From a virus (taxonomy: Duplodnaviria > Caudoviricetes), in IMG/VR virus record IMGVR_UViG_3300032007_000036, positions 32,001 to 96,000 of that record: DNA of 64,000 bases. One strand, written 5' to 3'. Shown in pieces: positions 12,796-51,344 of this stretch. The notes under the pieces are model-generated. The model was not told where the DNA came from, did no database searches, and saw only the letters and a program-made list of their open reading frames with translations. Position 1 is the stretch's first letter; every line of letters starts with the position of its first letter. A program made the position numbers and the translations under genes.

Positions 12796-13992
12796 TCATT
12801 TCTTTTTGGCTTGTAGAGCTAGTGCGGCACTGGTCACGGTGGTTATCGCTGTCAGAACTGCGATGGCGAACTTGAACAAGGACTCTCTACGTTCATGATC
12901 GTTCTTCATTTCAGTTATCCTGCGATCCTCTCGCTGAGCCGCAAGCTTATCCTCTTTCGCATATCTCTCGACGTTCGCTGCATTGACTGAACTCCAGTAT
13001 TCGTTCAGTCGTTTGAATTCATCACGTTCACGGATGCTGTCCGCTAGCTTGGCCTTAAGATCTGCGACGGTAGCGTCCTTGGTTGCGATCTGAGACCTCA
13101 ACCTGTTGTCCGCTGTCTTCCTATCCTCTGCTATTTGAGCTTGCAGATTAGCAACTGTTTGATCGTGAACCTCTTTAGATATCATACCAGTTACTTGAAT
13201 AGCCGAAGAGTTAACTCCAGCATCTTTCTTGGCAATGACTCTCTGCAGAGATTCAATCGAACTGGCAACACAGACAATGTCTCCAGATTGGACACGATAA
13301 GGTTCCTCGAGATCAATGTCTTTCAAGTTGATCGTGAAGACTGGAACAGTCGCACGTTCTTCTTGAAGATGATTACTCGGATACCTTAGGTAACAAGAGA
13401 GCGTAGTGGCTTCAGTGGTTACTTCACCACCTTCACCATCTATCAACGGAACCAATCGGTTGGAATGTCTACATCTGATGCATATGGTTTGACCCAATGC
13501 CTGGACATAGAGAACCTCGAATCGGTTCATCGGATCCTTCACCTCGAATACGAATCGAGGATCAGTTAGCTCAAAGTCTGAAGCAGACTCCTGGAGATCT
13601 GGACAATACTCAGATTCTGCCAGCATGTTCTTGGCGACTAGGGAATGCTCCGCAGTCGACACTGTCAATCCAAACTCTTCCAGCTTAATCGGATAGAGCA
13701 TAAAGTCATCGTACGGGATCTGAATCCGTTTTGTCGGAATCGGAATGTCCTTGGGAGCTCCACCTAGCGTATCTTTAGACCGTCTTCCATTGAACTCTCT
13801 TTGATAGATTTCAACGAACGGTTTCTGTGCAGCTAAAGCTCTTGGCCATTTTGGTATGACTGTTTGTCTTCCCGTATGGTCTGTGATTACTACATCAACT
13901 GGACCCCAGTTGTGTATCTGCATCTCCTTATAGTAGGCAGGATAGAGAGTGGACAGTGCAAGACTGTCCACCTCTTGGGTAGTATAACCCAT
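12796..13992 (-). CDS. Hypothetical protein with C-terminal coiled coil and transmembrane anchor
   Basis: Start reassigned to ATG 13992 (MGYTTQ) on SD GGAGG and an upstream TATATTAC; ends in a hydrophobic helix plus KKK. Confidence 0.75.
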   Translation of the reverse strand: MGYTTQEVDSLALSTLYPAYYKEMQIHNWGPVDVVITDHTGRQTVIPKWPRALAAQKPFVEIYQREFNGRRSKDTLGGAPKDIPIPTKRIQIPYDDFMLYPIKLEEFGLTVSTAEHSLVAKNMLAESEYCPDLQESASDFELTDPRFVFEVKDPMNRFEVLYVQALGQTICIRCRHSNRLVPLIDGEGGEVTTEATTLSCYLRYPSNHLQEERATVPVFTINLKDIDLEEPYRVQSGDIVCVASSIESLQRVIAKKDAGVNSSAIQVTGMISKEVHDQTVANLQAQIAEDRKTADNRLRSQIATKDATVADLKAKLADSIRERDEFKRLNEYWSSVNAANVERYAKEDKLAAQREDRRITEMKNDHERRESLFKFAIAVLTAITTVTSAALALQAKKK

Positions 13993-14024
13993 CTTAATCC
14001 TCCACTTGGGTTGCACGCACTGTA

Positions 14025-14032
14025 GTAATATA
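14025..14032 (-). promoter_or_regulatory. Early promoter motif TATATTAC upstream of the nvRNAP operon
   Basis: Exact motif lying between a terminator and an SD. Confidence 0.7.
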
Positions 14033-14077
14033 TGCGTAGAATCCAAATGGGCACTGGTATAATTTAGGAGGAATATG

Positions 14078-14127
14078 TAATAAAAGAACAAGGCACCACT
14101 CAGGGCCAAAAGCCCTGAGTGGTGCCT
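14078..14127 (-). terminator. Intrinsic terminator
   Basis: AGGCACCACTCAGGGC / GCCCTGAGTGGTGCCT stem plus U-tract. Confidence 0.85.
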
Positions 14128-14131
14128 GTAG

Positions 14132-32015: not shown

Positions 32016-33395
32016 TCAAAGAATGATATTCTCGAGCTCGTAGTTCTTAACCTTGAGCGCGGTACCGTGCATGTTCTTCATCGAGATCATCAAGAACTTC
32101 GATGTCAGCTTGACCGTCTGAATTCCGAGACGCTTAGCGTTGAGATCTTGAGCCTTGACACCACAGCACTTGTAGCAGAAGTTGTCCTTCGTCGCACAAG
32201 TGAGAGGCGAGTACAAGCGAATGACCTTACCAGTCACGTACTTGGCCAAGTTCTCTTCGGTGATGACAACATCTTCACTTCCGACCTGGATGGTTCTGCC
32301 GATGAACTTGCGTCCGTCGTAGACAGAGCAGTCAACTGCAATGGTTCTCTTGGTTCCGCAATCAAGCTCAGACACAGTTGCGTCCTGGAACGCACGCATA
32401 ACAAGCTTGGTCTCAGCACCACCCTTAGCAGTTTCGATACCGCGGTCATAAGAACCTTTACGCACTTCATTCACGATGGACGGGAATGCTTCCTTGGTCC
32501 AACCTTCAACAAGCGCGTTCGGGATGAACGTCATCTTACCAGCATCTGTTCCGAACGACGGAATGCCTCCAACAGTCAGGAACATCTTCTTGCGCTGAAC
32601 GTCAAAAGACTTGGAACCGAGACCTGTGAAGAACACAAGTGACGGATCGTCCTTCAAGTATTCCTTGTCCATCGATATCAGAACTTTTTCGAGCTGCTGA
32701 ATGACCAGAGGATCATCCATCTGGTCTTTGTGCTCTTCGATGAACTTGCGCTTAACCTCAGCGACATTAGGATCAGTCTCTAGAGACTTGACTGTCATGC
32801 TGGGAACACTGAGTTCTGTGATGTGTCCGATGAAGTACACATGATCCATGAACGATGTGAACTGATCAACAGTGACTTCTTTCTTGAGAACTTTGTCACG
32901 AACGAGACCAACGAGAAAATCAGGTGTGAACCTCTTGTTCTGGTAAGCGTAGATCTTCCAGTCGAACGGATACTGAAGCGTGATAATGTTCCAGATGAAC
33001 CTACCAACGCTAGTGTCATGCCACTCTTCGCTCAATATCGGTCCAGTAAGAACTGAAGTGTCGCTCTTGGAAGCCTCGAACACGTCATCCGACAAGAAGC
33101 AAGCTTTGTTGGACTCGTTGATGATGCTCAGAGTCAGAAGATCATTCTCGTCGGTGATGACTATGCCAACGAACCTCCTGTTGACACGAACGACATCTCC
33201 ACGCTCTATTCCAGGATACTTGAGTTTTTCAAGCTGGATATCACTGTCCACTTTGACCATGGTGTCACCATACTCGATCTCGTTGGTGTAGTCAGAACAA
33301 ACCGTCATGGCGTCAAGCAGCCACGAACGGTGTTTGAGCTTCCCACAAGCCGCTGCTACCATGAGGCAGCGTATCTGACGTGTATTAAGCCTCAT
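32016..33395 (-). CDS. Virion RNA polymerase beta' subunit, C-terminal part (phiKZ gp80-like)
   Basis: Bridge-helix-like RG.ETAKGG, DCGT, SPLTC..FC..CCG Zn site, and trigger-loop-like MKNMHG. Confidence 0.88.
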   Translation of the reverse strand: MRLNTRQIRCLMVAAACGKLKHRSWLLDAMTVCSDYTNEIEYGDTMVKVDSDIQLEKLKYPGIERGDVVRVNRRFVGIVITDENDLLTLSIINESNKACFLSDDVFEASKSDTSVLTGPILSEEWHDTSVGRFIWNIITLQYPFDWKIYAYQNKRFTPDFLVGLVRDKVLKKEVTVDQFTSFMDHVYFIGHITELSVPSMTVKSLETDPNVAEVKRKFIEEHKDQMDDPLVIQQLEKVLISMDKEYLKDDPSLVFFTGLGSKSFDVQRKKMFLTVGGIPSFGTDAGKMTFIPNALVEGWTKEAFPSIVNEVRKGSYDRGIETAKGGAETKLVMRAFQDATVSELDCGTKRTIAVDCSVYDGRKFIGRTIQVGSEDVVITEENLAKYVTGKVIRLYSPLTCATKDNFCYKCCGVKAQDLNAKRLGIQTVKLTSKFLMISMKNMHGTALKVKNYELENIIL

Positions 33396-34836: not shown

Positions 34837-35649
34837 ATGGCAAAATGGATACTTACTGATCACAGAATCATTTCGAGTGAGCTGACTCCCAATGTTCCTG
34901 TGGCTGTAGTCATCGACAAGTCCTACAGCAAACTGATACTCGACGGAATGAATAAAGGCCGTGACGCGATCCTCAAGATCGAGCAGCTTAAAGACGAACG
35001 TCGTCAGCTCAAGCTCAAAATCGTTCAGCTTGAAGCTAAGCTAGCTCGCTGGGCTAAACACTGCGAGGATACTGGAGTTGGAGTTCCTCATCCTGGATGC
35101 AAGAGGAAGAGCAAAGTTACGACTTCAACTAATGAAACTCAGATCGTCGATGTTCCTGTTCGCAAGAACTACAGGAAAAAAGAGTGTCCTGGTTGTGGTA
35201 CTAGACCTCCTCACATGTTCACTCCCAAGTCTTGTCGACAGGTGATGTGCGATGAGTGCAAGAGAGAACTTGCTGAGATCAAGAAACGTACTGGAACTAA
35301 ACTCAAGGGCAGAGACACTGTCAGAATTTCGTGGAGAGGTCAGGGACCTTACCTCGGTGTTCCGAAGAGTGAATCTCCGAAAGAGGGAGTTATTACCGAC
35401 AAGGATCTTGTTATCAAGAAGAACAAACCTGTTGTTGAAGAACCTCCCAAGAGACTTTCAGTCGAAGAAGTTCTCAGACTTCCTGACGGACCCGAGAAGA
35501 AACAACTCGAGTCTCAGTTCACTGTCGCTGAGAAGATGGAAGCTGCTAAAGTCAGGTACAAGATACAGAGAGAACAGATGCGTGATATGCGCAATAAGGG
35601 ATTTTCTCTTGATAACCCAATCGTTGGAGTTAATGCTCCGGCGATGTGA
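34837..35649 (+). CDS. Basic coiled-coil protein with a CxxC-x17-CxxC zinc ribbon
   Basis: Start MAKW at 34837 with SD GGAG; CPGC-GTRPPHMFTPKSCRQVM-CDEC. Confidence 0.7.
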   Translation: MAKWILTDHRIISSELTPNVPVAVVIDKSYSKLILDGMNKGRDAILKIEQLKDERRQLKLKIVQLEAKLARWAKHCEDTGVGVPHPGCKRKSKVTTSTNETQIVDVPVRKNYRKKECPGCGTRPPHMFTPKSCRQVMCDECKRELAEIKKRTGTKLKGRDTVRISWRGQGPYLGVPKSESPKEGVITDKDLVIKKNKPVVEEPPKRLSVEEVLRLPDGPEKKQLESQFTVAEKMEAAKVRYKIQREQMRDMRNKGFSLDNPIVGVNAPAM

Positions 35650-35681
35650 GTACAATGTTATAAACTACATCGTAGCACTTG

Positions 35682-35956
35682 GTTATGACCAGTTGGGATT
35701 TGGACGGGTCTGTAGCTTGAGTGGTTAGGTCAACGCGTTTAATCGTAAATTCACGCTAAGTGCGAGAGTCTCACGATTCACGAGAACCGTCATGCTTTCT
35801 CAGTCTCTATCTGAGATGGCATCCTGGTCTCGATAGAGCGCAAGCGACTGTCCTGGTAGACTCTCGTGAACATGTTCGTGTGCGCACCTAGTGTGACACA
35901 TGGCCTTACCAACCACTACATTACAGGCAACCCGTCCTCCTACTGTTGGTTACAAC
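35682..35956 (+). ncRNA. Candidate structured RNA or leader upstream of RNase H
   Basis: Long closing stem (GGACGGGT/ACCCGTCC, CTGTAG/TTACAG, AGTGGTT/AACCACT) enclosing internal hairpins. Confidence 0.55.
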
Positions 35957-35994
35957 TTAAACAAATCTGGTGATAACTTTAGGAGCTGCGAATC

Positions 35995-36603
35995 ATGTAT
36001 GACCCTGATATTCATGATCACAACTACCGACCGATAAATGACTCAGCGATGCAGCAGCAATGCGATATGCCGCAGGTCACGATCTACTCGGACGGAAGTT
36101 ATAAGCCGCAGATCAACTTTGGTGGTTATGGCACTCTCATGGAGTGCAATGGACACAGAGCTTTACTCTACGGCGGATCTCCATCGGACTCCAACAACAG
36201 AATGGAAATTACAGGAGTGTTGGCTGGACTTCGATTGCTGAACAGACCATGTGTTGTCACTGTTATCTCCGACTCGAGGTACGTTGTTGATGCCATCAAC
36301 GGCTACATCTGGTCATGGGTGTCGAACGACTGGATGACTTCTCAGAAGAAGCCAGTCGCCAACCGCGACCTTTGGGAAGAGATGCTGCAGTACATACAGA
36401 TCCACAGGATCCATGGTGTATGGATCAAGGGCCATACTGGTCATCCGGAAAATGAACGTTGTGATAGGCTTGCAACAATGGGCGCTTATCACTCGGCCAG
36501 TTTGCCGGTACCCGCTAGTAAGCAGTTACTGTACGACCTGTCGAAAGGAAAGTTTCCAGGTTCTGAGGATGACGACACGATTGAAAGTTACGATCTTCCC
36601 TAA
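35995..36603 (+). CDS. rnhA: Ribonuclease HI
   Basis: YSDGS, NNRME, SDS.YV, N.DLW and WIKGH.G..NE.CD.LA motifs; all four acidic catalytic residues present. Confidence 0.95.
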   Translation: MYDPDIHDHNYRPINDSAMQQQCDMPQVTIYSDGSYKPQINFGGYGTLMECNGHRALLYGGSPSDSNNRMEITGVLAGLRLLNRPCVVTVISDSRYVVDAINGYIWSWVSNDWMTSQKKPVANRDLWEEMLQYIQIHRIHGVWIKGHTGHPENERCDRLATMGAYHSASLPVPASKQLLYDLSKGKFPGSEDDDTIESYDLP

Positions 36604-36843
36604 CAGCACTCTAGGCTCCCGGCGGTTCTTACCGTCAGGAGTCTAGAGCTAACTGTTATCTTGGGTGGGTCTGGGGTACAGTACAGAGTATCTCAAATTT
36701 GAGATGACTGAGAGCAGTTCACGCAAGTAATGTGTGATGATTTTTGGGATTTAGAACTTGATCAAAAAAGAAACACTCTTTGAATTTAGCAAAAAAGAAA
36801 GGACCGCGTTAGCGATCCAGTCTCCGTAACCGGATTTCTCCGG

Positions 36844-37469: not shown

Positions 37470-39419
37470 TTAACGACGGCTGTTGAGCAGACGACTCATC
37501 TCACGATCCTGGATATCGCCAATCTTGAACCAGCGATCAGGTTCGTTGTGAGTGTTGAGCCAGCTACCCTCGGTGCCACGCTCCATGTCGGTGTGTGCAA
37601 CCCAAACGCGATAGTACGCACCGTTCTTCATCTTGACGATGGAGAATGTGTAGTCCTCGAATGCAATCATGCGCTCGATGGTGTCCGTACCGGTCAGCTC
37701 GTACTCATCGCCGCCAGCGCACTTCTTTAGCATGTTGACGACATGGAGGATAGACGGATTCGGAGTGCCGAACAGCATGTTCATGTATTCGCTCTGGGTA
37801 TGCTCTTCCGAGCATTTCTTCGTGTTCGGCTCTTCGCCGATCGGCTTCATGTTCGTCTGCGGCACAGCGACTTCCGTCTTGATCTCATCGAACCACTCGG
37901 TGGGCATGATTCCCTTGTTGTTCACGACCATCTCCTGCGTGATCTTGCGGTTGGCCTTGAACTTCTTGCCGGGGGCCTGAGGGAACTCAGCCTCATCACC
38001 CTCGTTGTAGATGACGATTTCTTCCATGATGTTTCCTTTCGTTAGAGATTCCTGGATTGGGCTGTCCTTCTCTTTGACCTCCATCAGGAGATCGAACAGA
38101 GTTCCGTTCTTGGTAGCCTCAGCGACCTCGACGTCAGTGAGATCCTTGGTGAGGCAGACGAACTCCTTACCAGGATATTCATCAAGAGTGACGAGTTCGC
38201 CCTTCTTGATAACGACGACAGGTTCCTTGACCTCAGCCTGATGATCAATGTCTGCCACAACAGAGGCAGGCTTCTCAGCATCAGGCTCAGCATCGCTCAT
38301 CTCGAAGGCTTCTTCCTTGAACGCTTCTGCGATTTCGCTCGCCGGTGCGTCAAAGGAATCGTTCCAGAGATCGTAGTCGACGATGTAGATCTTCTCAGGA
38401 TTGACGAAGTTCTTGAACTCGATGTCCGTGAACTCGTGAAGCACTGCCGCCTCCTCACCGTCCTTCTCAGGAACCGAGAGAATCCGGACAACGCCTTCAT
38501 CGCTGATATCGAACTTGACCCTAGTGGACATGAGGAGAACACGCTCGTTCTGAACTTCCTTAGCAGCCGGAGTGTCTGGCTTCTGTTTCTCAACAGGATT
38601 TTCCTGAGTGGTGTTCTCAGCACGCTGCACACGTTCGAACTTCTCGAGGAATGTATCGAGCATGCTCTCAGTGGAGCACTCGAACACATCGTCGATAGCG
38701 ACGTACGTTGCGGCAGAAGCAACCTTGTTCTCAGGATCCTTGAAAGACCAGACATCGACCTTCTGACCTTCCTCATCTTCCACGAAGATGGTGGCATCAC
38801 CGTCCTTGGAGATCGTCGTGACGATATCACCCTTGTGGAAGACGAGGTTCTTTGGAGGCTCATTCTCTTGCTGCTCCTCGGCAGGAGCGTCTCCAGGCTC
38901 AGGCATAGGCGGCTGTTCCTGGTTGATCGGCTTAAGATCTTCCTCCTTCACAGGTTTCGGAAGATCCTCCTCTATGCACATGTCCTGAATGAGACGAAAC
39001 ACGGGAACGTTCTTACCGTCCTTGAGCTCATTGGCGATCGTGCCAACAAGACGAGTCCAGCGCTTCAGGTTCTTCTGGTCTGTGACGACGAAGACGAAGT
39101 TGATAACCGTTCCTTTGCCTTCAGGGATAGGTTCCCTGATGACCTTGAACTGAGCCCATGAGGGATCAGGTCCGATGTCGAACGAGATCACCTCCCCCGT
39201 GAACTTGTTGGAGATGACGTTCGACGAGAACTCCTTGAGCTTGCCCATCAGTGTGGCATGCCGCTGGAGGCTCTTCATAACCTCGCTTGTGTCCACCCGC
39301 TCACCCAAACCGAGAATACGACGGAAGACGACGATAGGGCTCATCGACTTGACCGTGGACTTGTCCTTGGCGAGTGCGTCCAGGAAGACGCTAGTGAAGG
39401 TACTGTTGATGTTATTCAT
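37470..39419 (-). CDS. Large acidic multi-domain hypothetical protein
   Basis: 649 aa, overlapping the DNA polymerase stop; terminator at about 37418-37451. Confidence 0.75.
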   Translation of the reverse strand: MNNINSTFTSVFLDALAKDKSTVKSMSPIVVFRRILGLGERVDTSEVMKSLQRHATLMGKLKEFSSNVISNKFTGEVISFDIGPDPSWAQFKVIREPIPEGKGTVINFVFVVTDQKNLKRWTRLVGTIANELKDGKNVPVFRLIQDMCIEEDLPKPVKEEDLKPINQEQPPMPEPGDAPAEEQQENEPPKNLVFHKGDIVTTISKDGDATIFVEDEEGQKVDVWSFKDPENKVASAATYVAIDDVFECSTESMLDTFLEKFERVQRAENTTQENPVEKQKPDTPAAKEVQNERVLLMSTRVKFDISDEGVVRILSVPEKDGEEAAVLHEFTDIEFKNFVNPEKIYIVDYDLWNDSFDAPASEIAEAFKEEAFEMSDAEPDAEKPASVVADIDHQAEVKEPVVVIKKGELVTLDEYPGKEFVCLTKDLTDVEVAEATKNGTLFDLLMEVKEKDSPIQESLTKGNIMEEIVIYNEGDEAEFPQAPGKKFKANRKITQEMVVNNKGIMPTEWFDEIKTEVAVPQTNMKPIGEEPNTKKCSEEHTQSEYMNMLFGTPNPSILHVVNMLKKCAGGDEYELTGTDTIERMIAFEDYTFSIVKMKNGAYYRVWVAHTDMERGTEGSWLNTHNEPDRWFKIGDIQDREMSRLLNSRR

Positions 39420-41556
39420 CTTGTTGTTTCCTTGTTGTGTTTACCAAACGTGAGAGGATCCGGTGATCACCGTACACCTCGTTGAAGAGAAGTTTTGCGT
39501 TATCGTCATCGACGAACCCACAAGTTACACCGAGTTGCTGAAGGATTAGCCTAATCGGTCTCGTGTTTTCGTGAACGATGTCACGCACCATTACGAGAGG
39601 CATCAGTTCCTTGGGAATGACTGCCACCGTAGGAGCCAGAGCAATCTTGCTTGGCGGTTTCTTGTTCGCTAGGATAAATCCTTCGAACAGCTTTGCTACT
39701 TTAGGACTCGATTTCCTCAGGTCATCGAAATACTCCCTAGTCGGCTCTGCTATAGGAACAACGACGCACTTGGTAGGGATCTGGATATCGCCATACTTCC
39801 ATGCAAAGATTTCCTGCCATGCGTAGTAGTAATAGTACGGACTAGACATGGGTTTAGCATAACCGTCTTTAGATTTGATCGACTGTGGCTGACACCACGT
39901 GATACTGCCCTTAACAACTTCGCTGTAGATCTTGAGTTCCCACTCCATTGCTTTCTTGATGAGCTCGTGACCAGAGATCTTCTGGTTGAGCGAACCCAGC
40001 AGAATGTCCTGTACAATGAAGTTCTCACCGTACTGAGTTGCTGCCTTACAGATATCAGAACCCTTGAGCTGAACACCTTTTATGTCGGTGGATGGATTAG
40101 GCAGGATAACTCCTTCCTGCACAGTAATAACACCAGCGTAGGTTTTCTTGATATCTGCGAGACACATGGTCGGATAGAGGAACTCGTTCTTCATCGCCAT
40201 GTCTTTAACTCGATCTCCCTTAGCTCCGTGGCAGATGCTGTACAGCTTGAGAACATGGGCAACAGCCAGAGTTATCCAGTAGATCATGAGACAGGCGATG
40301 TGGTAAGTGCCGGGAGAGATCTTGTAGATGTCTCCGGTGTACCACTGAACCCAATCCTTGACAGTGAAGATAACCGAGTCTGTGTCGGAAATAACCGAGG
40401 AGTTGCGTTGCATGAACTTACGGTTGAGAACATCCGGGACACAGAGATCTGTGAAGATGAACGTGTCGAAGATGTCTTCCATTTTCTTCAGCTCACTCTC
40501 CACATGTCTGGCGATGTTGACGAACTTGACCGCTTTGTCAGGCATGTGTTTAGGCAGATCGTACACCTGGATCTCAGGATCTCCAGAACCCACAACGTCG
40601 TTGAATGCAACGTTGACCATGGTTACAAGAGCACCGTCGAGTTTGAACAAGTCATCTGCAACAACTCCATGTTCATCCTTGACAGAGCTCAGATCGAACA
40701 TAGCCTCTGCCCACGGACGGAAGATGCCGTCGTTGCCCATGATGATGTGCCGTAGATTCTGGTAGTACCAGAAGAATTGCACTTCCTCATCGGTCAGATG
40801 GCTTACTAGGTCGTCGACCCTTGAAAGTTCCTGTTCTTTATACCTGTGATAAATACACAACATGTCCTTGAAGAACTTGGAAAGCTCAGCCTTGCTGACG
40901 AATCTCATACCGTGATTCTGCAGACAGTTAAGAACTTTCTCAGGATCGATGCTACCTTGCAGGTGTATAGTCACATGGTTGATAAGCTGATCCAGAGAGA
41001 ACCAGCCGAAGTTTCCTCCGAGAACATGCTCGATACAGGTATTGGCATAACCGATCAAAGCTCGACCAGCACTGGTGATGCTATTGTAGTTAGCCTTGTC
41101 ATAGAAGATCGAATAAGAAGAGCCGTAATTCCCAGGCAGGGAGTTGACGCCGATTTTGATAACAGTCTGCAAGTAGTAGCAGATCAGCTGGTTGACAGTG
41201 TCGCCGATTGCTTTGTATTTGAGCATGTCTTTCTTGAACTTCTTCCTGAGCTTCAGTCGGTTCAAGATCATTTGAATCGTCTTACCAGTCTTCTTATCGT
41301 GTTGGCAGTAGAAACTGCCGTTGGGAGACAGGATGTCATCCGCATGTTTGTCAAGGTAAGTTACTAAGTCAACAGCTTTGAGCTGAGGTAGTCCCTCTGT
41401 AAGAGTATCCACCACCACAGCCGTCATCGGGCTGTAGCGGTCTTTACAGGCCAGACGGAATCGCCGATCTGCCTCCTCTTCAGAGAAACCAAACTTCCGT
41501 TGCAAATGGGTGACCATCGTGTCCCTGTACGTTTGTAATATCCTAGGACGTGACAT
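39412..41556 (-). CDS. Family B DNA polymerase, catalytic part (phiKZ gp50-like split polymerase)
   Basis: Motif B Q..IKI..NS..G, IT..GR, motif C SDTDS, KK.Y and KG; no exonuclease domain recognised. Confidence 0.88.
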   Translation of the reverse strand: MSRPRILQTYRDTMVTHLQRKFGFSEEEADRRFRLACKDRYSPMTAVVVDTLTEGLPQLKAVDLVTYLDKHADDILSPNGSFYCQHDKKTGKTIQMILNRLKLRKKFKKDMLKYKAIGDTVNQLICYYLQTVIKIGVNSLPGNYGSSYSIFYDKANYNSITSAGRALIGYANTCIEHVLGGNFGWFSLDQLINHVTIHLQGSIDPEKVLNCLQNHGMRFVSKAELSKFFKDMLCIYHRYKEQELSRVDDLVSHLTDEEVQFFWYYQNLRHIIMGNDGIFRPWAEAMFDLSSVKDEHGVVADDLFKLDGALVTMVNVAFNDVVGSGDPEIQVYDLPKHMPDKAVKFVNIARHVESELKKMEDIFDTFIFTDLCVPDVLNRKFMQRNSSVISDTDSVIFTVKDWVQWYTGDIYKISPGTYHIACLMIYWITLAVAHVLKLYSICHGAKGDRVKDMAMKNEFLYPTMCLADIKKTYAGVITVQEGVILPNPSTDIKGVQLKGSDICKAATQYGENFIVQDILLGSLNQKISGHELIKKAMEWELKIYSEVVKGSITWCQPQSIKSKDGYAKPMSSPYYYYYAWQEIFAWKYGDIQIPTKCVVVPIAEPTREYFDDLRKSSPKVAKLFEGFILANKKPPSKIALAPTVAVIPKELMPLVMVRDIVHENTRPIRLILQQLGVTCGFVDDDNAKLLFNEVYGDHRILSRLVNTTRKQQDE

Positions 41557-50992: not shown

Positions 50993-51091
50993 AAATGCTC
51001 TTTCTTAAAGTTGTTGATTTTAGTTATATTATCGTCTATTTAGTAGGCACTTTTACCAAAAATGACAGCAAAAAATGAAGAGATGAATAGA

Positions 51092-51127
51092 GGTACACAC
51101 GGGGCACCGAAATGCCCCGTGTGTACC
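51092..51127 (-). terminator. Intrinsic terminator
   Basis: GGTACACACGGGGCA / TGCCCCGTGTGTACC stem. Confidence 0.8.
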
Positions 51128-51151
51128 GGTTGACTTGGACGGAGGGACTCC

Positions 51152-51277
51152 TTAGATACATGCTACGAGCATGCACCTGGAGACCATGAGTTTACTTACA
51201 CCGAAGTGCATGATCAAGGGCGTTGACTCAACGCTACCTATCAACATGCTCCCCAACAGTGCCGGTAGACTAATCAT
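51152..51277 (-). CDS. 41-aa hydrophobic micro-protein absent from the ORF track
   Basis: GGAGG-N6-ATG; MISLPALLGSMLIGSVESTPLIMHFGVSKLMVSRCMLVACI; TATATCAC upstream and terminator downstream. Confidence 0.5.
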   Translation of the reverse strand: MISLPALLGSMLIGSVESTPLIMHFGVSKLMVSRCMLVACI

Positions 51278-51344
51278 GTTTAACCTCCATTCTTCAATCG
51301 CTTTGCCATCATGGCTTAGCAAATTAGTGATATATACTCAACCG

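Follow-up and report, generated by a model that had tools for sequence, protein, structure and literature searches.

The 345-nt gap in front of the RNase HI gene (rnh) of a jumbo phage encodes a real, conserved folded RNA of about 325 nt, which lies outside every catalogued family. The structure covaries between phages, belongs to the plus strand, is linked to rnh, and pairs with the Shine-Dalgarno sequence of that gene. With a probability of about 0.55, the gap is the 5' leader of the RNase HI mRNA, which would limit or time translation by sequestering the Shine-Dalgarno sequence. The preliminary description of this DNA had proposed a novel non-coding RNA or a conformational switch controlling rnhA; the novel structured plus-strand RNA that it described next to RNase H stands, and the switch that it placed on segment 35858-35870 does not.

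The window analysed here is a stretch of 64,000 nt corresponding to bases 32001-96000 of a 131-kb IMG/VR virus record. CheckV estimates the record to be about 49% complete; at 131 kb, it is therefore a fragment of a jumbo phage. rnh (35995-36603) encodes 202 amino acids and is identified by Pfam RNase_H (2.6e-35) and PHROG 531 (3.2e-47). It is on the plus strand, as are the RNA segments, the promoter-like motif, and the terminator-like hairpin described below. The gap separates it from an orphan 270-aa ORF (34837-35649), for which no family is found in Pfam or PHROG. Other genes in the neighbourhood encode an RNA polymerase beta-like subunit (32016-33395), a DNA polymerase (39412-41556), and two topoisomerase II subunits. 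When the GenBank phages are searched with DNA in near and distant mode, there is no match to the locus; when they are searched with protein, only RNase H genes are found, all with less than 48% identity. The element is present in a single copy in its own genome, and no tubulin gene with a similar leader is found in the record.

The RNase H clade has about 21 orthologues with 56-93% identity. The loci used for comparison are L002 (from IMG/VR; RNase H identity of 57%), L003 (71%), L004 (63%), and L005 (60%). A recognisable homologous element precedes the orthologous RNase HI genes of three uncultured relatives, L002, L003, and L005. The upstream gaps of L002 and L003 align blockwise to the window and that of L005 aligns partly. 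The shared blocks are the 16-mer CAATGTTATAAACTAC, G(G/C)ATTTGRACGR, GCTTGAGTGGTTAG, AYGMTTTCTCAGTCTC, GCAYC, GGAGCGCAA, and the ribosome-binding site GGAGCTG. Across the loci the element and rnh are always found together; the upstream genes differ and the synteny of the neighbours is only partial. A pattern scan of IMG/VR with the 16-mer returns 18 loci, among which only L045 (on the same contig as L002) is genuine, and all 11 loci returned by a scan of GTDB genomes with the core pattern are chance matches.

Two other kinds of content were considered for the gap. No frame, start, or peptide is conserved among its small ORFs: L002 has ACG in place of the ATG of ATGCTT, and the ORFs that begin at the leader ATG near 35685 are 3-18 codons long, lie in differing frames, and have no Shine-Dalgarno sequence. 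The small-ORF reading was rejected because frame and start are not conserved. tRNA, tmRNA, and tRNA-like (YrlA-type) RNA were rejected as well, since ARAGORN finds no tRNA or tmRNA in the window, L002-L005, or L045, and a T-arm-like hairpin (UGUAG-UUCGAUC-CUGCA) is confined to L002 and is not conserved.

The whole leader, from the end of the promoter-like motif to the RNase H start codon (35669-35994), folds with a minimum free energy (MFE) of -128.7 kcal/mol (z -5.77), and none of 100 dinucleotide shuffles is as good. The minus strand reaches -111.3 kcal/mol (z -3.49). The plus strand is the stabler one in all five related loci, by 2-25 kcal/mol, in agreement with the earlier argument that G.U pairs favour this strand. 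Other long intergenic gaps of the same genome often reach z-scores from -3 to -7.5, mostly on account of terminators and otherwise of unannotated ORFs. With strong structure so common in its long gaps, the z-score alone is not distinctive. In the relatives, the z-score of the whole element is modest (-2.3 in L002, -2.5 in L003, and -1.7 in L005), and the L004 leader of about 350 nt is strongly folded (z -6.7). The weight of evidence is thus in the covariation, and the gap is set apart by its strand asymmetry and by comparison. The layout of promoter motif, anti-Shine-Dalgarno segment, rod, and Shine-Dalgarno sequence is found in none of the genome's other long gaps. Rfam 15 gives no match in the whole window at gathering thresholds. 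At E<=10, region 35550-36100 has only chance-level eukaryotic matches, mir-1911 (17.9 bits against a threshold of 88) and CLRN1-AS1.

Covariation was counted over seven helices aligned by hand (P1, P2, P3, P4b, P5, P6, and P7), where 116 of 122 cells pair (10 of the 116 as G.U). Compensatory double changes are found in 15 of the 38 columns, a statistic below R-scape grade since only three homologues can be aligned and two more share just the architecture. For the tip there is also a tool-made alignment (A5); the other helices were aligned by hand.

The predicted fold is a rod, in which the helices are ordered P0, P1, P1b, P2, P2b, the side hairpin P3, P4, P4a, P4b, and P5, followed by the tip, P6 and P7. 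The comparative rod model carries -99 of the -129 kcal/mol in the window and -78 of the -102 in L003. P1 is an 8-bp helix between GGACGGGT (35702-35709) and ACCCGTCC (35930-35937). It covaries in a RNAalifold run, with the variants GAACGAGT/GCTCGTTC in L002, GGACGGAT/ATCCGCCC in L003, and AGACGGAA/GTTCGTCT in L005. The 5' strands of P1b, P2, and P2b (35710-15, 35720-26, and 35727-32, within 35710-35732) pair with 35921-26, 35911-17, and 35901-06 (within 35901-35926); these helices are in the MFE structure with pair probabilities of 0.77-0.99. P2 has one compensatory column, GTGGTT/AACCAC in the window and GTAGTT/AACTAC in L002, and is only 4 bp long in L003. The long-range pairing of the two ends is as it was first described: P1, CTGTAG/TTACAG, AGTGGTT (35720-26)/AACCACT (35911-17), and TGGGA/TCCTA are all present.

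P3 (35735-35746), GCG-UUUAAU-CGU, is retained as GCG/CGC in L003 and as GCAUG/CAUGC in L002, with a similar 6-nt loop. P4 pairs TCACGCTAAGTGCG (35751-35764) with CGCACCTAGTGTGA (35883-35896) in 13 of 14 positions and is found both in the MFE structure and in the evaluated model. At the place of P4, L003 has a helix of different sequence, GGCGTTG/CGACGCC plus CAGGT/ACCTG, with a pair probability of 0.96-0.98. P4b is a perfect 9-bp helix between TTCACGAGA (35777-35785) and TCTCGTGAA (35862-35870), and three of its five homologous columns have compensatory double changes among the window (CGAGA/TCTCG), L003 (CGGAA/TTCCG), and L002 (CAGAA/TTCTG). The proposed switch concerned this helix. Segment 35858-70 is indeed perfectly complementary to both CGAGAGTCT (35763-71) and TTCACGAGA (35777-85). 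However, the pairing CGAGAGTCT/AGACTCTCG is not conserved in L002 or L003 and only TTCACGAGA/TCTCGTGAA covaries; the CGAGAGTCT partner is a window-specific repeat of CGAGA. Next to P4b is the largest internal loop, a one-sided bulge in the 3' strand, TGTCCTGGTAGAC (35849-35861; consensus about yTGT..GG.TGrA), the letters of which are kept in the tip alignment A5. It has 13 nt in the window, 16 nt in L003, and 27 nt in L002, with 0-3 nt on the opposite side (3x13, 0x16, and 1x27, respectively). No partner was found for the conserved bulge. Since there is no two-sided central bubble and no 6S match at E<=10, the resemblance to 6S RNA suggested in the preliminary description is not borne out.

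The conserved tip module (35793-35846) is defined by alignment A5 and covariance model R1. It consists of P5 (35794-97/35842-45, plus U.G 35793/35846), the invariant junction UCUCAGU (35798-35804), P6 (35805-10/35833-38), and P7 (35813-17/35827-31) with the loop GGCAUCCUG. All three helices covary: GCTT/AAGC against GATT/AATC of L002 in P5, CTCTAT/ATAGAG against CTCCGA/TTGGAG in P6, and GAGAT/GTCTC against GGGTT/GACCC in P7. When the P5/P6/P7 model is placed on A5, 93.3% of the cells pair and six of the 20 pairs change on both sides, compared with 34-44% and 0-1 two-sided changes for slid controls. The element GCGCAAGC is present in the sequence, yet the GC-GCAA-GC tetraloop read from it earlier is refuted. 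Its AAGC is the 3' strand of P5 and pairs with GCTT; the hairpin would break in L002, where P5 covaries. Covariance model R1 matches only the window, L003, and L002/L045 (84-110 and 71 bits). Stretches of 12-16 nt within the tip are invariant in phages that share only 57-71% identity in RNase H. It is a lineage feature, present in the window, L002, and L003, truncated in L005 (without P6 and P7), and absent in L004, which lacks the whole conserved interior and has no R1 match.

The hairpin TCTCAG/CTGAGA, noted from the start, is also present in the sequence. This alternative hairpin H1 (35798-803/35811-16, within 35798-35816) excludes P7. It stays pairable in the window, L002, and L003 only through one-sided changes involving G.U; by contrast, the double changes in P7 are genuine. 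The pair probability of H1 is 0.50 in the window and 0.92-0.99 in L002 and L003; in single-sequence folding of these two relatives, P5-P7 have a pair probability of about 0 and other tip pairings are preferred. H1 and P6 together could form a candidate H-type pseudoknot.

The outermost helix, P0, connects the rod to translation. In all five loci, the segment just past the promoter motif pairs with the Shine-Dalgarno region of RNase H some 300-380 nt downstream. In the window, the 5' strand (35670-35693; the anti-Shine-Dalgarno segment with TCGTAGC, CTT, and ACCAG blocks) pairs with 35966-35991, which holds the Shine-Dalgarno sequence AGGAG (35981-35985). P0 is present in the MFE or centroid structure of all five loci, with pair probabilities of 0.86-0.99 (0.98-0.99 in the window). 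The window pair has a duplex energy of -27.0 kcal/mol, where shuffles average -12.2, and 2 of 1000 shuffles are as good; over four loci, the numbers as good among 1000 are 2, 3, 25, and 25. Cognate 5' and 3' strands beat non-cognate combinations in every row. A scan of about 480 upstream positions places the promoter-proximal site at the top in three loci; in another it comes second, and in the window third.

The partners in P0 vary in sequence and register between phages while complementarity is kept. The pairing is UCGUAGC.CUU with AGG.GCUGCGA in the window, GUCCCUAUUGC with GCAAUAGGAGC in L003, GUACUUCACUCAG with CUGGAGCUGGAGUAC in L002, and UCAUUUCCA with UGGAGGUGG in L005. L004 has a perfect 9-bp anti-Shine-Dalgarno/Shine-Dalgarno pairing, ACCUCCUGA/UCAGGAGGU, across about 350 nt despite its unrelated interior sequence. 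The group-wide feature is hence a long folded leader closed over the Shine-Dalgarno sequence. As in MS2-type leaders, which are a functional class and not a homology family, an upstream complement of the downstream Shine-Dalgarno sequence is found and its pairing is conserved among relatives.

The promoter-like motif TATAAACTAC (35659-35668) lies inside the 16-mer CAATGTTATAAACTAC (35653-35668), of which L002 and L003 have identical copies and L005 a near-identical one. In its own genome, TATAAAYTAC (with up to one mismatch) has 20 copies, and 14 of them lie within the intergenic 7.4% of the DNA, an enrichment of about ten-fold. The intergenic copies are mostly 5-45 nt upstream of start codons. 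In the relatives, the motif is found upstream of ORFs with good ribosome-binding sites and, in L005, upstream of a tRNA 5' end. Jumbo phages that encode their own RNA polymerase have AT-rich early-promoter motifs of about 10 nt centred near -10 (PMC7598289), and TATAAACTAC fits these motifs. The copy at 35659-35668 is 327 nt upstream of the rnh start, far past the usual leader length in this genome; 5' UTRs of phiKZ are typically 31-40 nt (PMC8244752). No terminator-like site is found between the RNA and rnh, and a terminator-like hairpin followed by a T run lies downstream of the gene (36719-36737), so that sites of this type do occur at gene ends in this genome. The element is read as the rnh leader because the promoter motif is upstream of it and no terminator precedes rnh. 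From this arrangement we infer that the element and rnh are probably one transcript, starting a few bases past TATAAACTAC. If the start is 5-6 nt past the motif, the TCGTAGC portion of P0 is lost and the pairing to AGG of the Shine-Dalgarno sequence is kept. The (T/C)ATG that is conserved some 20 nt from the 5' end of the leader, near 35684-35687 in the window, could be a putative internal start of the phiKZ type (TATG), skipping the anti-Shine-Dalgarno segment. P0, the promoter-like motif, and the competition between H1 and P7 are absent from the preliminary description.

In the proposed mechanism, transcription from TATAAACTAC, in a phage with its own RNA polymerase, would run terminator-free into rnh, and the leader would fold into one long irregular rod. 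P0 would close the 5' end of the transcript onto the Shine-Dalgarno sequence, so that the fully folded mRNA would be closed to ribosomes. Closure of P0 would bury the 5' terminus as well, since the anti-Shine-Dalgarno segment lies at the very start of the transcript. A buried 5' terminus tends to stabilise bacterial mRNAs. Long-range sequestration of this kind would keep RNase H synthesis low or within a time window. RNase H would then be made only from nascent transcripts before P0 closes, after cleavage of the duplex, or after a factor opens the fold. The near-invariant tip P5-P7, perhaps switching to the pseudoknot of H1 and P6, may serve as a nucleation or recognition module. A conserved metastable hairpin that would delay P0 closure, as in MS2, was looked for and none was found.

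A short hairpin suffices to hide a ribosome-binding site; a 250-nt covarying interior capped by an invariant tip suggests a further role. Sequestration does not explain why the interior is so large and so conserved, and this keeps two further readings alive. In one of them, the rod is mainly a stable trans-acting RNA (a decoy or sponge for a host or phage protein, 6S-like or otherwise, or the partner of a phage protein recognising the invariant tip) cut from the rnh transcript, for example by RNase III in P0 or P1; the same cut would free the ribosome-binding site. In favour of such an RNA, the interior is by far more elaborate and better conserved than is needed for hiding a ribosome site, tip stretches of 12-16 nt stay invariant at the protein divergence given above, and the long near-continuous basal duplex resembles processing stalks. 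E. coli 6S RNA, for example, is co-transcribed with a downstream ORF. Against a trans-acting RNA, neither 6S nor any other Rfam family matches at E<=10 and the bubble is one-sided (13-27 nt). Moreover, L005 and L004 retain the closure of the anti-Shine-Dalgarno segment on the Shine-Dalgarno sequence but not the tip, and the element is always linked to rnh. On balance, a mainly trans-acting role is a minority reading, one that we consider rather unlikely. The combined form, a new phage non-coding RNA excised by a basal-duplex cleavage that also unmasks the RNase H ribosome site and so couples both outputs, is somewhat less likely still.

In the other, the RNA is a switch that senses a ligand or a protein, as riboswitches and autoregulatory operators do; the nested P6 and P7 would alternate with the H1 and P6 pseudoknot and the change would be relayed to the closure. 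In the window, L002, and L003, the GAGA/GGG strand can pair in either H1 or P7, and H1 stays pairable through G.U while P7 has its compensatory changes. The geometry of the pseudoknot is classical (S1 of 5-7 bp, L1 of 1 nt, S2 of 6 bp, L2 of 0-1 nt, and L3 of 16-21 nt), and the junction UUUCUCAG and the loop GCAYC are invariant. However, some 150 nt of helix lie between the tip and the Shine-Dalgarno sequence and no relay is evident, H1 does not covary on both sides, and the module is lacking in L004 and incomplete in L005. No known aptamer family is matched in Rfam, and three sequences cannot tell a switch from a coincidence of repeated UCUC. A sensing role is accordingly improbable.

That the RNA is a primer or R-loop RNA of a replication origin, similar to ColE1 RNA II and cut by the neighbouring RNase H, is very improbable. 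The element adjoins RNase H and is near the genes for DNA polymerase, topoisomerase II, and an RNA polymerase subunit. However, the cumulative GC skew has no extremum here and follows gene orientation, and what lies downstream is the rnh ORF and not an AT-rich unwinding element. The pairing with the Shine-Dalgarno sequence suggests a role in translation, and the gene of an enzyme does not have to lie next to that of its substrate. Finally, a DNA-level palindrome (a cruciform or a protein-binding site), a retron-like msr/msd, or chance complementarity can hardly be credited. The two ends do form long inverted repeats, and the minus strand, too, beats its shuffles; but on the opposite strand the G.U cells would read A.C, every locus favours the plus strand, compensatory changes preserve RNA pairs, and a miniature transposable element (MITE) is excluded because the element is single copy. 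The likeness to retron a1/a2 that had been raised for the terminal repeats fails as well, as no reverse transcriptase is found in the 131-kb record (about 49% complete; no RVT_1 match at E<=1, while control genomes scored), and the retron msr/msd candidate was rejected on this ground and because the gene next to the element encodes just RNase HI.

No description of a structured RNA upstream of a phage RNase H was found in the literature searched. Jumbo phages that carry RNA polymerases are usually described as regulating their genes by promoter class, and their 5' UTRs tend to be short. A conserved leader of 300-390 nt lying over the ribosome site of a replication enzyme suggests that these phages also control expression after transcription. 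The dosage of RNase HI matters for primer removal and for the control of R-loops, and tight translational gating of the enzyme is plausible. The analysis also defines an RNA that can be tested, with its P0 helix, its invariant tip, and its possible pseudoknot switch.

Among known RNAs, the rod shape and the paired ends are like those of 6S RNA (RF00013), while the present RNA exceeds 6S by about 100 nt, lacks a two-sided central bubble, and pairs its ends with a ribosome-binding site. In phage T4, hairpins are found at the ribosome-binding sites of genes e, soc, 49, and I-TevI, and autoregulatory leaders in genes 32 and 43, the gene 32 leader having an H-type pseudoknot. Structure in these T4 cases amounts to a short hairpin formed locally or to a pseudoknot at the 5' end with an unstructured tract behind it. 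As in these leaders, translation of a phage replication or accessory gene is predicted here to be gated by leader structure; unlike them, the structure is a 300-nt rod, and there is no homology. In the rpoS leader and in the type I toxin mRNA hok, which folds back between its 5' and 3' ends, inhibitory long-range stems lie over the ribosome-binding site and are opened in trans or by processing. The aapA1 type I toxin mRNA has an inhibitory fold-back of its 5' and 3' ends (PMC6733600). Like aapA1, hok, and rpoS, the RNase H leader has a long-range pairing that would hide the ribosome site of a potentially harmful or tightly dosed protein, with activation requiring an extra event. Unlike these three, its gene encodes RNase HI, neither a toxin nor a sigma factor, and no antisense or small-RNA partner or processing site is identified.

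A precedent is the leader of the maturation gene of MS2 (Levivirus), where an upstream complementary sequence pairs with the Shine-Dalgarno sequence across intervening arms (PMC4615214). Both are phage leaders with a 5'-proximal complement on the Shine-Dalgarno sequence, covarying helices in between, and a closed equilibrium fold (PMC4615214), and in both the protein would be needed in small amounts. MS2 has an RNA genome and a cloverleaf of 130 nt, whereas here a DNA jumbo phage has a rod of 300-390 nt with a conserved tip, and the two share no sequence homology. The mechanism proposed for the RNase H leader is an unusually large form of a known kind of translational control, and the sequence family is new, with three alignable members so far.

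Beyond the end of the window, the whole 131-kb virus record from which it was taken (G000:C1) carries several copies of a longer cassette, near 109334(-), 117701(-), 118568(-) and 124999(-). Each consists of the AT-rich TATAAAYTAC-type promoter motif followed by a common leader, TATAAATTAC-AGATGTAGTCT-TAACCACAAA-GGA, and lies 30-45 nt upstream of a start codon. On the opposite strand, near-palindromic partners are found at 109329(+) and 117696(+). The cassette looks like a repeated promoter-plus-leader unit. The promoter motif also occurs in L005 (2161-2198), a locus from an uncultured relative, where TATAAATTTC is followed after a 3-nt gap by an apparent tRNA-gene 5' end, GGGGGTATAGCTCAATTGGTAGAGC. 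This putative tRNA gene is incomplete, being interrupted by the contig end, and in this truncated form ARAGORN does not call it.

Further long gaps with strong folding (z ~ -7) exist in the window at 50993-51344 (minus strand) and 13689-14131. Because their GC-rich hairpins of 15-16 bp precede T runs, these gaps are probably terminators, not leaders.

In L004, a perfect 17-bp hairpin, CTGAGGTAGACTGGG-AGAAACA-CCCAGTCTACCTCAG (2636-2676), stands immediately 3' of the anti-SD segment, and the rest of the RNase HI (rnh) leader around it is unrelated. A T-arm-like loop caps a hairpin in L002 (TGTAG-TTCGATC-CTGCA, 2678-2694); this hairpin overlaps the 5' strand of the rod helices P2/P2b and has no conserved counterpart in the window or L003.

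Typical RNase HI proteins are about 145-155 aa long and lack a C-terminal tail such as the one conserved in this clade (window gene 35995-36603; alignment A1). The tail comprises, in order, an invariant P..PG, an acidic E/D-D-D run and Y.IP. At the N-terminus, the proteins of the clade are extended by 25 aa.

About 20 nt into the rnh leader, a (T/C)ATG is kept at 35684-35687 of the window and at the equivalent sites of L002, L003 and L005, as TATG in the window and L002 and CATG in L003 and L005. If transcription began there, the resulting transcripts would lack the anti-SD segment. The core of the phiKZ late promoter is TATG (PMC7598289), and the leader (T/C)ATG resembles it.
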